DNA of 56,160 bases from a virus (taxonomy: Duplodnaviria > Caudoviricetes), in IMG/VR virus record IMGVR_UViG_3300032247_000812, positions 1 through 56,160 of that record; one strand, given 5' to 3'. A model generated the notes under the pieces. The model was not told the DNA's origin. It was given only the letters and a program-made list of their open reading frames with translations, and did no database searches. The position numbers and the translations under genes were made by a program. Shown here piece by piece: positions 1 to 4,133 of this stretch. Positions within the stretch are counted from its first letter, which is position 1. Each line of letters starts with the position of its first letter.

Positions 1-38
1 CCAGGGGGTCCAAGGTTCGAATCCTTGTACTCCGACCA
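1..38 (+). tRNA. tRNA-Pro, 3' half (truncated by window edge)
   Basis: T-arm CAAGG-TTCGAAT-CCTTG, 3' acceptor strand TACTCCG-A-CCA (implies C1:G72, A73, typical of tRNA-Pro); anticodon lies outside the window. Confidence 0.8.
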
Positions 39-57
39 ATTTGTATAGAAAGATGTT

Positions 58-246
58 ATGAGTAAAGGTAGTAGACCAAGACCATATAGTGTTAGTCAAG
101 AGGAATTTGCGAATAGCTTTGACAGAATCTTTCGCAAGCCTGATCCAAGAGTAATTCAAGATTCATTAAATGAAGATGAAGCATTTAATGATTTAGAAAA
201 ATTCAACAAACAAAAACTTAATAAAGAAAAAGGAAATACAGAATGA
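58..246 (+). CDS. hypothetical protein
   Basis: 62-aa ORF with MSKGSRPRP...F.NSFDRIF motif seen in small phage proteins; ATGA overlap with next ORF. Confidence 0.7.
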   Translation: MSKGSRPRPYSVSQEEFANSFDRIFRKPDPRVIQDSLNEDEAFNDLEKFNKQKLNKEKGNTE

Positions 247-416
247 CATGCAGAGGATACAATCCAAAGACAGTGAAAATTTCAAAGACAATTAAACGTG
301 TAGCATCAACTATTATTGACCCACACGTTCGTGGAGAGTTTATTCGTAGTTATGTAGAAGTCGCTAAAAGCAATTCTACTGTACGTACATCGAAAAAAGA
401 TTCTTTTAAGACTTAA
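243..416 (+). CDS. hypothetical protein (57 aa, below ORF-track cutoff)
   Basis: AAGGA RBS, ATG 243 overlapping upstream TGA, MTCRGYNPKTVKISK...SFKT, TAA 414-416. Confidence 0.65.
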   Translation: MTCRGYNPKTVKISKTIKRVASTIIDPHVRGEFIRSYVEVAKSNSTVRTSKKDSFKT

Positions 417-434
417 AGGATAAATAAGATTAAT

Positions 435-509
435 GCATCCTTAGCTCAGGGGTAGAGCGTCTCCTTTACACGGAGAGGGTCCGCGGTTCGAAACCGTGAG
501 GATGTACCA
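435..509 (+). tRNA. tRNA-Val (TAC)
   Basis: Cloverleaf: GCATCCT/AGGATGT acceptor, GCTC/GAGC D-stem, TCTCC-TTTACAC-GGAGA anticodon arm, TTCGAAA T-loop, encoded CCA. Confidence 0.96.
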
Positions 510-516
510 GATAGAT

Positions 517-590
517 GCGGGTATGATGTAAAGGTAACCTGAAACCTTGCCAAGGTTTATTTGCGAGTTCGATTCTCGCTACCCGCTCCA
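517..590 (+). tRNA. tRNA-Gly (GCC)
   Basis: GCGGGTA/TACCCGC acceptor, AAACC-TTGCCAA-GGTTT anticodon arm, GCGAG-TTCGATT-CTCGC T-arm, T73, encoded CCA. Confidence 0.96.
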
Positions 591-628
591 AACAATGTCA
601 GTAGATACAACCTTATAAAGAATTAATA

Positions 629-1210
629 ATGATTAGTGAAAGTTTACTTAAAGAATTAAATCAAACCGCCGGCCCTAATATGGAAGGTAATTTGTGTTAC
701 GAACATGAACTAGTTCCTAATGATAATCAATTCTATCAAGGTTTCGAAAATAAAAGAAAAAATATAGTAACAATAGCTAAAAAATATAATAATATAACAG
801 AGATTGGGTTTAATGCAGGACATAGTGCCGCAATAATGTTATCAGCTAACCCTAATTTAAATTTAACCAGTATTGATATCGGACATCATTCATATACTGT
901 ACCGTGTGCTAATGTAATACAAAATTATTTTCCTAATAAACATAAACTAATTTTAAAAGATTCAAGAAAAATTGGTAGGGATGAGATTGGACCATCTGAT
1001 GTAGTAATAATTGACGGTGGGCATGATTTTGCCAATTGTTTTTTAGACATTGCACTATGTATAGCATATTGTAAACCGAGAACTCTTATAGTTATAGACG
1101 ATTACGTTTATCCCCCGATTGCTGAAGCAACCAGCAGATTTTTAAGTTCTCTAACACCTTGTGATGAATTCATTAGCGATCCATTCCAAGGTATTTTTTA
1201 TTTAAAGTAA
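629..1210 (+). CDS. class I SAM-dependent methyltransferase (Methyltransf_24-like)
   Basis: EIGFNAGHS motif I, IIDGGH and IVIDD motifs. Confidence 0.85.
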   Translation: MISESLLKELNQTAGPNMEGNLCYEHELVPNDNQFYQGFENKRKNIVTIAKKYNNITEIGFNAGHSAAIMLSANPNLNLTSIDIGHHSYTVPCANVIQNYFPNKHKLILKDSRKIGRDEIGPSDVVIIDGGHDFANCFLDIALCIAYCKPRTLIVIDDYVYPPIAEATSRFLSSLTPCDEFISDPFQGIFYLK

Positions 1211-1233
1211 AAACAAACAACATAAAGGAAAAC

Positions 1234-1497
1234 ATGTCATTATCATCAAGATACACAAGCGAAGATGCAGTAGCAAAAATTGGAAACAGATTTAATCTGG
1301 TTCTCATTGCAACATTACGTGCTAGAGAATTACGTGCCGGAGACCCGTCAAAAGTTTCTGATGAAGGCACAGGTCCATTATTAACTGCCCTTCGTGAAAT
1401 CGAAGAAGGACATGTTGGTGTAGAGTACTTAGAGAGGTACAAGAACACAGAACAACAACGTAAGAAAAATTTTGAACGCTACAATAGAGAATTCTAA
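1234..1497 (+). CDS. rpoZ: DNA-directed RNA polymerase omega subunit
   Basis: EDAVAKIGNRFNLVLIATLRAREL and ALREIEEG match omega conserved regions; AAGGA RBS. Confidence 0.92.
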   Translation: MSLSSRYTSEDAVAKIGNRFNLVLIATLRARELRAGDPSKVSDEGTGPLLTALREIEEGHVGVEYLERYKNTEQQRKKNFERYNREF

Positions 1498-1506
1498 ATA
1501 GAACAC

Positions 1507-1698
1507 TCGGGCTACTCTTCTCCGTTAATGAAGGCGTAATTGTAGTAACGAGAACTACACGGTGCATTGGATCTACCGCAAGGCCCGCGTAACATGGGCG
1601 ACTTGAGAAATCACAAAGGCAGAACATAACTGTCTAGATAGAGATATGTAGGACAGCACCTTAAACTCATGTTGGGGCTTGGTAGTGCAAGTAGCCGA
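1507..1698 (+). ncRNA. candidate structured non-coding RNA of unknown class
   Basis: GC-richer intergenic segment closed by TCGG(G)CTACT/AGTAGCCGA, nested helices GGTGC/GCACC and ATCTA/TAGAT, two GNRA tetraloops, CTAAATA motif 6 nt upstream. Confidence 0.65.
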
Positions 1699-1702
1699 CA
1701 AC

Positions 1703-2311
1703 TCATACGTCAGAATTTGTATTAGGTCCCCAGCTACGACCTATTAAACAAATTCTATTACCGCTAGTAATCTTAGTAACACGGTGAGGATAATTAGCAG
1801 GGAACAATACACAACTACCAAATGCTCTACTAACATGATGGTCAGCAACATATAAATCCCCGCCTTCATATTCATTACTATCTGATAATTGTATAATTAG
1901 ATTTACTTTTCTTTCTAATTGTAAATCATCGGTTATTGAGCCATCATGGTGAGTACTAAAATAATCCCCTGGATGGTATATTTTTATTTCATATGGTTCA
2001 ATAAAAACTATATCGTTTTTTATTTTACTGGCATGTAGTGTCCAAACACTATTTAATATTCGGTATATGCTATTGCTATACCCAAATGCGTACATTGTTT
2101 CATGTACCTGACATGTAGTAAATTCTGAACCATCTCCCACATTTGACTGTCTTCTATGTAATCCCGAGGCACGTTCATCCTTTGCATATGCTTTTAAGTT
2201 ATCAGCAATAGATTCAGTAATAATATCATTAATTTCAAATATATTGTTATAATCTATTATAGCAGGATCAGGAGATAAAAACGATTTGGGTTTGTATTGT
2301 ATCGGGAACAT
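1703..2311 (-). CDS. 2OG-Fe(II) oxygenase (prolyl-4-hydroxylase-like)
   Basis: HHD, YEGGDL, FPA..PHRVTKITSGNR motifs. Confidence 0.88.
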   Translation of the reverse strand: MFPIQYKPKSFLSPDPAIIDYNNIFEINDIITESIADNLKAYAKDERASGLHRRQSNVGDGSEFTTCQVHETMYAFGYSNSIYRILNSVWTLHASKIKNDIVFIEPYEIKIYHPGDYFSTHHDGSITDDLQLERKVNLIIQLSDSNEYEGGDLYVADHHVSRAFGSCVLFPANYPHRVTKITSGNRICLIGRSWGPNTNSDV

Positions 2312-2326
2312 GTAGTATTTATTTAC

Positions 2327-2355
2327 TTGACATTAATCCCAAAACGTTGTATAAT
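2327..2355 (+). promoter_or_regulatory. sigma70-type early promoter
   Basis: TTGACA-17 nt-TATAAT, perfect consensus, upstream of AAGGA RBS and ATG 2376. Confidence 0.85.
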
Positions 2356-2375
2356 TAGATTAGAAAGGAATTATT

Positions 2376-2843
2376 ATGCCATGGATTGAAAATGTAGCAG
2401 CCGCAGATATCCCAACCCGCTTTCACCATGAAGCCGGTGAGAATAGTATGCTGATTAGCATTACAGACCCTGCGAGTTGGAGGCCAACACCGGCGCATAA
2501 ATTCAAAGAGATTCATAATTTTGAATTTTTGGATGTTGAAAAGGATGACTTTGTTCTTGAGGAAGCTATGAAGTGTAGCCAAGAACAAGCAAATGAATTG
2601 GTAAGACTATTGCAACATGCATTGGAAAATAAAATGAATGTTGTTGTTCATTGCTTTGCAGGTATTTGCCGTAGTGGTGCAGTTTGTGAAGTTGGTGTAA
2701 TGATGGGTTTTGATGACACCAACAGATTTCGCAGTCCAAACTTGTTGGTCAAGCATCGTATGATGAAGGCATTGGGTTGGACTTATGATGAAAACGAAAA
2801 GCCAAATATTGATGATTGGCGGACATTTAGAAATGATTTGTAA
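2376..2843 (+). CDS. protein tyrosine/dual-specificity phosphatase-like protein
   Basis: VVHCFAGICRSGA = HCxxGxxRS P-loop. Confidence 0.85.
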   Translation: MPWIENVAAADIPTRFHHEAGENSMLISITDPASWRPTPAHKFKEIHNFEFLDVEKDDFVLEEAMKCSQEQANELVRLLQHALENKMNVVVHCFAGICRSGAVCEVGVMMGFDDTNRFRSPNLLVKHRMMKALGWTYDENEKPNIDDWRTFRNDL

Positions 2844-3548: not shown

Positions 3549-4133
3549 ATGCCTAGTGTATTTTTAGTTAGCGATACGCACTTTGGTCACACGGGTGTTT
3601 GTAAGTTTACACGAAATGATGGAGTAACAAAATTACGTCCATGGGATAGTCCAGAAGAAATGGATGAAGAAATGGTCAAACGTTGGAACGAACGTGTAAA
3701 GCCAACCGATAAAGTCTATCACTTGGGTGATGTGGTTATTAACCGTAAAAGTTTAGGAATCATGCGCCGCTTAAACGGTGACAAGGTTTTAATTCGAGGT
3801 AACCACGACATTTTCCGTGATGATGAATATCGTGAACACTTTCGGGAATTACGTGCATATCATGTTATGAACGGAATGATATTAAGTCACATACCATTAC
3901 ATCCTGAATCATTAGGTCGATTTGGTGTTAACATTCACGGGCATTTACATGCCAATCGTGTTATGTTACCGGGATTTGGTGGTAAGATTACCGACATTGT
4001 AGATACCCGTTATCACTGCGTTTGCGTTGAACATACTGACTTTGCTCCTATCTTATTTGAAGATGTTATAGCACGAATCAAAGACGAAGGTGGTGAGGTT
4101 GGTTTTAAAAACGGAAACGGACCCACAATGTGA
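3549..4133 (+). CDS. calcineurin-like metallophosphoesterase
   Basis: SDTHFGH, LGD, GNHD, SHIP, HGHLH motifs. Confidence 0.92.
   Translation: MPSVFLVSDTHFGHTGVCKFTRNDGVTKLRPWDSPEEMDEEMVKRWNERVKPTDKVYHLGDVVINRKSLGIMRRLNGDKVLIRGNHDIFRDDEYREHFRELRAYHVMNGMILSHIPLHPESLGRFGVNIHGHLHANRVMLPGFGGKITDIVDTRYHCVCVEHTDFAPILFEDVIARIKDEGGEVGFKNGNGPTM

Follow-up and report, generated by a model that had tools for sequence, protein, structure and literature searches.

The IMG/VR virus record IMGVR_UViG_3300032247_000812 (Duplodnaviria; Caudoviricetes), analyzed here over its full 56,160 bases and referred to as the window, has a CheckV completeness of 16% and is therefore a fragment of a very large phage. Near its start, two open reading frames (ORFs), one rpoZ-like and one for a 2-oxoglutarate (2OG)-Fe(II) oxygenase, converge on a gap of 205 nucleotides (nt; 1498-1702). 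This gap holds a real noncoding RNA gene, on the plus strand, that belongs to a new family absent from Rfam. The features of the locus are:

1234-1497, plus strand: rpoZ-like ORF (Pfam RNA_pol_Rpb6, E 1e-12)
1494-1500, plus strand: CTAAATA motif overlapping the rpoZ stop codon, a putative late-type promoter
1503-1706, plus strand: whole RNA (positions 1-207 of the covariance model R1 correspond to 1504-1705; cmsearch 149.8 bits, E 4.8e-48)
1703-2311, minus strand: 2OG-Fe(II) oxygenase ORF, converging on the gap
435-509: transfer RNA (tRNA) gene, tRNA-Val (ARAGORN)
517-590: tRNA-Gly (ARAGORN)

An earlier note on this sequence had remarked on an intergenic gap downstream of rpoZ that is richer in GC than its flanks, and both observations hold, with a GC content of 0.52 in 1501-1600 against about 0.29-0.37 on either side; the two nearby tRNA genes resemble the gap in this respect. 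In a near-identical contig (L001), the gap is unchanged and substitutions occur in both flanking genes. ARAGORN finds only tRNA-Val and tRNA-Gly in the window, with neither a tRNA nor a transfer-messenger RNA (tmRNA) in the gap, and a scan of the whole window with Rfam 15 (4227 models) at the gathering threshold likewise returns only two tRNAs. Relaxing the cutoff to E<=10 on 1400-1800 gives 0 matches, and the RNA itself is unmatched in an Rfam scan of 16 related loci, in keeping with the note's judgment that it is unlike tRNA, tmRNA, signal recognition particle RNA, RNase P or 6S RNA. No sigma-70 promoter and no intrinsic terminator was found on either strand of 1400-1750.

A new RNA family in phage genomes

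At the level of BLAST, window 1200-2400 has no match among GenBank phages and the 205-nt gap has none in the records of L002-L004, though the RNA is present in L002 and in L003/L004; DNA searches of this kind are thus too insensitive to detect it. Relatives were reached through neighboring genes, by searching IMG/VR with the oxygenase protein and then with a 472-amino-acid (aa) protein of the Pfam families DUF2828 and DUF7788, referred to below as the Ro60-like protein. The oxygenase search uncovered a related RNA in the same place in L007, L008 and L013-L020, where the upstream gene is mostly not rpoZ but that of the 472-aa protein (82-88% identity among loci); from the second search, the best 80 loci (L086-L165) of 412 IMG/VR relatives were used. 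These neighbor-gene searches supplied 36 distinct RNAs, which we aligned with MAFFT blind to structure (alignment A5). An RNA-first sample, meant to remove sampling bias, came from scanning IMG/VR with a motif of the P10 region of the RNA and comprises at least 120 loci; an nhmmer profile of A5 matches 115 of the 120 listed, giving at least 91 distinct RNAs. All context counts out of 91 below refer to this sample, among the matches listed. Homologues occur in well over 100 IMG/VR phage contigs.

With the covariance model of the family (R1), cmsearch yields 97 matches in 100 sources, 93 of which span model positions 1-207, 90 of these at 85-181 bits. The window holds a single copy by nhmmer (1505-1704, E 2.2e-35). 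Three contigs that hold a strong copy also contain a weak, full-length second match to R1 (L210 5867-6068; L262 4810-5013, minus strand; L217 14244-14444, minus strand; 33-37 bits, E 4e-10 to 7e-9), and these may constitute a divergent paralogue family. Outside phages, a scan of one genome per prokaryote species with the P10-region motif, for which we calculate some 280 expected chance matches, returned 101 stretches, none like the RNA beyond about 30-60 nt around the motif. A catalogue of candidate structured RNAs from IMG/VR describes motifs of 29-151 nt (PMC10690425). Our literature search found no description of the RNA, although the supplementary tables of PMC10690425, which lay outside the comparison, might list pieces of it.

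The region is not coding, as an open frame of at least 60 aa is present in only 3 of 103 sequences on the plus strand and 20 of 103 on the minus strand, and the RNA lengths (187-217 nt) lack a 3-nt periodicity. G:U and U:G cells are frequent in the supported pairs described below; since these would be C-A mismatches on the other strand, the RNA lies on the plus strand. Every tRNA in the 91 loci is on the same strand as the RNA, with 0 on the opposite one.

Covariation supports a pseudoknotted fold

Inspection of the alignments by eye led to a structure of 53 pairs, which was tested in three ways. In A5, 77.7% of cells are paired against 64.7 ± 0.6 after shuffling (0/500 shuffles), 312 cells have changed on both sides against 132 ± 9 (0/500), and the covariation score is 0.404 against 0.200 (0/500), with slid structures scoring 0.07-0.18. 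A partner-swap test compared the duplex energy of each sequence's own two segments with that of partners swapped among the 36 sequences; nine elements give z-scores of -5.3 to -11.9, whereas 150 random region pairs form a null with a mean of 0.11, a standard deviation of 1.39 and a minimum of -3.6. A model-derived alignment of 79 distinct rows from the independent RNA-first sample (A6) has 81.3% of cells paired against 67.4 ± 0.4 shuffled (0/500), 628 cells changed on both sides against 242 ± 14 (0/500), and a covariation score of 0.400 against 0.181 (0/500); having been fitted to the nested helices, A6 leans towards them, with pseudoknot PK2 outside the model. A purely sequence-based hidden Markov model (HMM) alignment of 103 distinct RNAs was used alongside. 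The fold consists of eight helices (P2-P10) joined by at least two pseudoknots (PK), laid out in the window as follows.

1503-1510, plus strand: conserved 5' motif ACACUCGG; most relatives have A(A)CCCGG
1504-1507 with 1684-1687, plus strand: tentative PK3, CACU with AGUG of the P10 loop (z -3.6, at the edge of the null)
1515-1534, plus strand: P2 hairpin (C1515:G1534, 1517-1520:1530-1533), conserved loop UCCGUUAAU
1541-1559, plus strand: P3 hairpin UGUAGU/ACUACA (z -9.3)
1560-1578, plus strand: P4 (1560-1563:1575-1578), closing an 11-nt loop (z -6.5)
1567-1569 with 1614-1616, plus strand: PK2, UUG of the P4 loop with CAA of the P6-P7 linker (z -8.5)
1579-1605, plus strand: P5/P6 bulged hairpin (1579-1582:1602-1605; 1583-1586:1596-1599; z -9.3)
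1617-1635, plus strand: P7 hairpin AGGCAG/CUGUCU, loop AACAUAA (z -6.0)
1624-1628 with 1645-1649, plus strand: PK1, ACAUA of the P7 loop with UAUGU of the P7/P8 linker (z -5.3)
1651-1667, plus strand: conserved GGAC, then the short P8 (A1655:U1667, G1656:C1666)
1671-1699, plus strand: 3' domain, with P9 (1671-1675:1695-1699) and P10 (1678-1681:1688-1691)

Compensatory change runs through the fold. In the 3' domain, where P9 (z -11.9) and P10 (z -8.7) are accompanied by an internal loop GG/UAG and P10 carries the loop GUAGUG, P9 is 94.4% paired in A6 with 5/5 pairs changed on both sides, is 91.7% paired in the HMM alignment against 75.4% shuffled, and appears as GUUGG/CCGAC, AUUGG/CCAAU, GACCGG/CCGGUC, GUUCUAU/AUAGAAC or GUCUAG/CUAGAC. 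P2 (z -10.0) is 96.2% paired in A6, again with 5/5 pairs changed on both sides, and P5/P6 is 76.9% paired with 8/8 pairs so changed. The outer pairs of P3 show 5-6 pair types, its inner pairs being misaligned between subfamilies; P7 keeps its outer GG/CC and covaries in its inner pairs. P4, 95-98% paired (94.9% against 80.5% shuffled in the HMM alignment), changes from GGU/ACC to AGU/ACU and UGU/ACA in relatives.

The two pseudoknots behave similarly. PK2, which extends to 5-6 base pairs (bp) in relatives, is 98.6% paired in A6 and 99.0% paired in the HMM alignment of 103 RNAs against 64.0 ± 2.0 shuffled, and its pairs vary (1567:1616, UA 57 and CG 46; 1568:1615, UA 54 and AU 47; 1569:1614, six types). 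PK1 varies from ACAU/AUGU in the window to GCAU/AUGC in L138, ACUUG/CAAGU in L163 and UAACA/UGUUA in L152. P8, of only 2 bp, is 96.1% paired against 83.0% shuffled (AU 69, GC 30), with a weak partner-swap score (z -1.1), and the tentative PK3 depends mainly on the pair 1507:1684 (CG 86, UA 9, UG 1 in 96/96 sequences). Invariant nucleotides occupy the P2 loop (CGUUA), the P10 loop (GURGUG) and the GGAC segment; scanning the conserved unpaired segments for covarying partners gave none clearly beyond the null.

Set against this fold, the helices that the earlier note had read from the sequence are all complementary as written, and four of its hairpins and one of its two pseudoknots covary: its hairpins CTTC/GAAG and TGTAGT/ACTACA are P2 (extended here by C1515:G1534) and P3, its helices GCCC/GGGC and GGCAG/CTGTC are P6 and P7, and its pseudoknot between (A)ACAU of the P7 loop and TATGT at 1645-1649 is PK1. 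Four others pair no better than shuffled sequences, at 57.7% together against 57.9% (332/500 shuffles), and on the 103 sequences of the HMM alignment each one stays level with its own shuffle. They are the terminal helix 1507-1516/1690-1698 (z -1.2; 64.1% against 64.1%), the 3' strand of which covaries instead with a strand 25 nt upstream to form P9; the helices GGTGC/GCACC (z -2.1; 63.5% against 63.5%) and ATCTA/TAGAT (z +0.8; 42.1% against 43.6%); and a pseudoknot of the P6-loop AACAT with ATGTT at 1669-1673 (z -3.5, close to the null minimum; 32.7% against 31.2%). The bases of a proposed CC-GCAA-GG hairpin fall in the 3' strand of P4 and the 5' strand of P5, and a TGA-GAAA-TCA hairpin is not conserved. 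The note's broader proposal of a conserved, tertiary-folded RNA outside known classes is borne out by the family, by covariation beyond that of shuffles and by its absence from Rfam.

The RNA resides in tRNA arrays

A same-strand tRNA ends within 10 nt upstream of the RNA in 32 of the 91 distinct RNAs, one begins within 300 nt downstream in 59, and 76 have a tRNA within 1 kilobase (kb), which makes the family a resident of phage tRNA arrays, specifically those of uncultured giant freshwater phages. At upstream junctions, the order is tRNA...CCA, 2-5 variable nt, then A(A)CCCGG; the RNA starts 2-5 nt past the tRNA CCA in 21 of 65 distinct loci, and a closely trailing tRNA starts about 10-12 nt past P9. 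A convergent oxygenase lies directly downstream in 8 of 91, and rpoZ directly upstream in just 2 of 91, so that an association with rpoZ, and hence the RNA polymerase (RNAP) binding that the earlier note had suggested, is not supported; few members share the rpoZ neighborhood of the window and L007, which reflects gene order by accident.

The window nevertheless adjoins an island of its own. Its first 38 bases are part of a tRNA-Pro(TGG) gene that is whole in the metagenome contig L170 (6433-6509), so that the window represents the distal part of a larger tRNA island. L170 is 100% identical to window 1-595 and reaches 6.5 kb further upstream, and on it this phage's island comprises 22 tRNAs and a GOLLD RNA:

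L170 3711-4175, plus strand: GOLLD RNA (RF02032; 199.9 bits, gathering score 150; E 7e-56)

GOLLD occupies the stretch about 2.3-2.8 kb before the window begins, with a tRNA-Lys embedded at 3774-3845. The window RNA stands at the far end of the island, past two more tRNAs, a methyltransferase and rpoZ.

The CTAAATA motif, which the earlier note had taken for a late-promoter-like signal driving independent transcription, is present where described but is not enriched in the window (12 copies against 17.8 expected), and roughly half of the best 80 of 412 Ro60-like loci also have it after the gene's stop codon. As a general feature of the family such a promoter fails, because the 32 of 91 RNAs with a tRNA end within 10 nt leave no room for it. 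In metatranscriptomes, where four runs hold parts of the stretch and contigs were placed on 900-2400, the RNA is present in RNA libraries from three studies. A 194-nt contig from lake water (run X18) covers 1515-1708 at a depth of 19.3, the contig of a neighboring gene having a depth of 2.7; a contig from run X17 (1423-1642, depth 14.8) runs from inside rpoZ into the RNA; and run X19 contains several short contigs within 1502-1620, at depths of up to 140, and one that joins a relative's upstream RNA module to the RNA. Parts of the window without cover in RNA libraries are not evidence of silence.

A Ro60-like protein is a frequent neighbor

The 472-aa DUF2828 and DUF7788 protein has a high-confidence predicted fold resembling that of Ro60, with a TROVE ring and a vWA domain.

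L008 3718-5136, minus strand: Ro60-like gene, 472 aa (Pfam DUF2828 and DUF7788)

Its AlphaFold model (pLDDT 92.1, pTM 0.91; 76-sequence alignment) matches Ro60 structures over the full chain in Foldseek (2i91, 1yvp, 9kop, 9l5y and 2nvo; E 1e-9 to 3e-7, TM 0.48-0.64), including those of the Thermus phage phiLo Ro60 and Deinococcus Rsr. A profile search against PDB sequences gave as its best hit a capsid protein at E 0.047, so the relation to Ro60 is visible by fold search only. The protein is PHROG 850, annotated as 'RNA-binding protein', and occurs in 702 GenBank phage records, among them Escherichia, Mycobacterium, Salmonella, Vibrio, Listeria and Staphylococcus phages; in literature on DUF2828 we found nothing about phages or RNA. 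Two isolates, Serratia phage BF and Synechococcus phage BUCT-ZZ01, carry the gene without this RNA beside it. In Serratia phage BF (a 357-kb isolate; L174 810-4018), the gene comes two genes after an RNA ligase, an order that suggests an RNA-repair setting.

Two other RNA elements accompany the gene. A handle RNA directly upstream of it (L008 5166-5219, minus strand) has an AGG-initiated stem, CAGCAA, a variable body, a closing strand and GU; it is not part of the family RNA, and neither the window nor L170 contains a convincing copy. Sub-threshold matches to the Rfam Dicty Class I model (26-30 bits, gathering 41.5) occur in seven loci (L008, L013, L018, L103, L142, L156 and L161). An F element of about 90 nt, in which a long 5'-3' stem around a bulge carries CCUGCCCGAUAAGACAGG and GCGAAAG in a Y-RNA-like outline, always lies near the Ro60-like gene, downstream of it in 38 loci (for example L116 2950-3040 and L099 3140-3230) and is absent from the window.

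Comparison with known RNAs

The nearest kind is that of the enigmatic structured RNAs of phage tRNA islands, namely T4 rnaC and rnaD, GOLLD and ROOL, none of which, to our knowledge, has an assigned function. Like the window RNA, the T4 species 1 and 2 RNAs (rnaC, rnaD) are small, stable RNAs that lie inside a tRNA cluster directly after a same-strand tRNA (NC_000866). They are shorter, at 139 and 119 nt, and rnaC has a T-arm-like GGUUCGAAUCC and rnaD ends in CCA, neither of which the window RNA possesses; searching T4 69500-74500 with the family profile (nhmmer, E<=10) gave no match. GOLLD and ROOL, according to a recent preprint, are structured phage RNAs often found near tRNA islands (bioRxiv 10.1101/2024.12.08.627333). 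They share with the window RNA a pseudoknotted structure and a setting in phage tRNA islands, GOLLD lying in this same island, but they measure several hundred nt or more against about 205 nt, and no relation in sequence or structure to the window RNA was found: the GOLLD model matches L170 3711-4175 and not 1498-1702, and no Rfam family at all matches 1400-1800 at E<=10.

Y RNAs, represented by YrlA (RF02553) and phiLo Yrl1/2, often lie beside a same-strand gene of Ro60 fold in an RNA-metabolism region of phages, and thus resemble the RNA in setting. According to PMC4201824, the YrlA gene should lie on the strand of a Ro60 orthologue and no more than about 4 kb from it, and the Y-RNA features named in PMC4201824 and PMC12135203 are a CGAA motif (GNCGAAN0-1G near the 5' end), a terminal stem and tRNA-like arms. 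Such a Ro60-like neighbor exists for 31 of the 91 RNAs, 19 of them adjacent, and linkage is accordingly loose; the window copy has none in the window or in the 6.5 kb upstream. There is no CGAA anywhere in 1503-1706, the motif at the 5' end being ACACUCGG and that of relatives A(A)CCCGG; T and D arms are lacking, with RF02553 and the tRNA models unmatched at E<=10; and the 5'-3' end helix, as seen above, pairs only as often as in shuffled sequences (64.1%).

6S RNA imitates an open promoter by means of a central bubble in one long hairpin, whereas the window RNA is multi-branched and pseudoknotted and has no Rfam match. HDV-like (hepatitis delta virus) ribozymes form a nested double pseudoknot in which P1 starts at the cleavage site; a comparison of this topology with the window RNA, though not exhaustive, gave no obvious mapping. 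Minimal HDV-like theta ribozymes, which abut phage tRNAs according to PMC10879173, share with the RNA a start a few nt past a tRNA 3' end. The window RNA is several times larger, however, matches no HDV family and has no conserved first nucleotide or clear P1 partner.

An RNase P-like architecture was also tried and rejected. Its starting points were the 5' RRAAACCCGG and the 3' GGACAG...CCGGGGCU, which we take to resemble CR-I and CR-V of RNase P; P9 covaries with a local partner, no RNase P model matches, and subfamilies with GUUCUAU/AUAGAAC in P9 have no complementarity to the 5' end.

Proposed function and alternatives

We consider it probable that the RNA is a stable transcript, made together with tRNAs and released by tRNA maturation, that acts in trans on a partner in tRNA metabolism, translation or RNA surveillance. 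In most relatives it would be transcribed as part of a tRNA array and probably freed by the maturation of its neighbors, as the 3' end of the tRNA before it is processed and RNase P cuts at the tRNA that follows. In this phage, the unit seems to have come to lie beyond rpoZ, at the island's distal edge, where the RNA would be made by read-through or from a late-type promoter. The compact, conserved tertiary fold and its invariant loop nucleotides indicate that it works via a specific three-dimensional surface, which it would present to a partner, the likeliest being a protein or RNA that serves tRNA metabolism, translation or RNA surveillance.

Several observations weigh against this interpretation. 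The minimum free energy of the single sequence is ordinary relative to dinucleotide shuffles (z -0.77 for the plus strand, -0.40 for the minus strand), so that evidence from the sequence alone is not above chance, and RNAalifold on A5 recovers only P4 and P6 (10 pairs, -3.68 kcal/mol). Alignment columns lend only weak support to the inner pairs of P3 (47-52% paired) and to P5 and PK1 (about 60%; for PK1 against 44% shuffled) because the subfamilies differ by insertions and deletions, and support for these elements was taken from the partner-swap test; shared ancestry of the sequences moreover inflates shuffle-based tests. The copies in the window and in L007 have no flanking tRNAs, and tRNA enzymes therefore cannot set the ends of the RNA in this phage. 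The metatranscriptome contigs that cover the RNA are assemblies, from which ends, strand and level cannot be read and in which DNA carry-over may contribute.

Where the RNA neighbors a Ro60-like gene, it could serve as a Y-RNA-like partner of that protein, binding its ring and gating or tethering it as Y RNAs do for Ro60/Rsr, a role that we regard as unlikely. The RNA lies at most 480 nt downstream, on the same strand, in 36 of the best 80 of 412 Ro60-like loci; of the 91 RNAs of the RNA-first sample, 19 have the gene as their direct upstream neighbor and 12 have it 1-5 kb downstream, and in the records of L002-L004 it is about 4.6 kb upstream on the same strand. The match of the modeled protein to Ro60 over its full length points in the same direction, as do the phage pairs of Ro60 and Y RNA already described in PMC4201824 and PMC12135203. 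Yet a Ro-like gene is missing from the 56-kb window and from the 6.5 kb upstream of it on L170, which together cover 62.6 kb around this copy, as well as from the 40 kb of the L007 record, and 60 of the 91 loci lack one, 39 of these having at least 1.7 kb of upstream sequence. The Ro60-like gene has tighter RNA companions in the handle RNA and the F element, neither of which is in the window, and the RNA has no CGAA motif, conserved 5'-3' stem or YrlA match. Partnership with the Ro60-like protein had been our first reading of the neighbor-gene sample, and was lowered by the RNA-first scan, L170 and the handle and F RNAs. We rate as decidedly unlikely that the RNA is a compact, pseudoknotted class that acts on the tRNAs themselves, as a trans-acting or self-processing ribozyme or as a decoy that binds tRNAs or nucleases and, in the infected cell, shields or matures the phage's set of tRNAs; were it so, tRNA islands would gain a dedicated RNA-based accessory machine alongside GOLLD. 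The catalytic version, in which a ribozyme of the array cleaves itself in the HDV-like theta style to free the 3' end of the upstream tRNA, or works in trans on tRNA precursors, is improbable. Its multiple pseudoknots, its invariant unpaired nucleotides and its start just past the CCA in the 21 of 65 loci would accord with such an enzyme, and theta ribozymes do adjoin phage tRNAs (PMC10879173). No Rfam ribozyme family matches at E<=10, however, and about 205 nt is far above the size of minimal theta ribozymes; the linker past the CCA is constant in neither length nor sequence, no partner of P1 type clearly covaries with the 5' segment (best z -4.1 and -3.8, near the null extreme), and in the window and 18 other loci the upstream gene encodes a protein rather than a tRNA.

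The position directly after rpoZ in the window and L007, together with the RNA contig that links the rpoZ 3' end to the RNA, would accord with a 6S-like RNA directed at RNAP or with a cis element of the rpoZ and oxygenase mRNAs, such as a stabilizer in the 3' untranslated region or a bidirectional terminator. We hold this to be highly improbable, and the connection to rpoZ and RNAP to be essentially excluded: 2 of 91 RNAs adjoin rpoZ and 8 of 91 the convergent oxygenase, the loci L009-L012 and L021 carry a simple hairpin terminator after rpoZ and lack the RNA, no terminator-like site occurs in 1400-1750, and the fold, which has no 6S match, is branched and pseudoknotted rather than a bubble hairpin. 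Next to no probability attaches to a non-functional remnant of a decayed tRNA or mobile element with chance helices. The ordinary single-sequence fold and the weak RNAalifold support would fit a remnant, but the covariation tests on A5 and A6 refute it, and the partner-swap statistics, the full-length conservation in well over 100 contigs and the depth above flanking genes in RNA libraries all run counter to it.

The RNA represents a third, mid-sized class of tRNA-island RNA, abundant in freshwater giant phages, beside T4 rnaC/rnaD and GOLLD/ROOL. At about 205 nt and with a rigid-looking double-pseudoknot core, it lends itself to probing, to crystallography or cryo-electron microscopy, and to pull-downs, and its variable neighbors (tRNAs, the Ro60-like protein, rpoZ and an oxygenase of RNA-modifying type) are testable candidates for its partner.

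Other elements near the Ro60-like gene

In 19 of the best 80 of 412 Ro60-like loci, the main RNA is replaced by an E element of about 120 nt (GGGAUGGGCUG, with an internal terminator-like hairpin), located 3' of the gene in L090, L093, L108-L110, L113, L128-L136, L142, L150, L156 and L158. Some loci carry additional modules before the main RNA, either module B (about 65 nt, GAUUAGGUGAGUG...CCUAAUC) or module C (about 120 nt, with covarying stems, closed by UUUGAUAUG/CAUAUCAAA). Between tRNAs of L090 (85-200, plus strand), upstream of a Ro60-like gene, there is a sub-threshold, full-length YrlA match (RF02553, 30.8 bits, E 0.006); a similarly weak match at L170 998-1117 overlaps two tRNAs and may reflect tRNA-likeness only. 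In Synechococcus phage BUCT-ZZ01 (L175 4060-4300), 3' of the Ro60-like gene, two tRNA-like genes, read by eye, appear to be interrupted in the anticodon region by insertions of about 40 nt that resemble each other (AAAACGCAUUCUGUAAAGAAUGAAUUCUGCAAUC).

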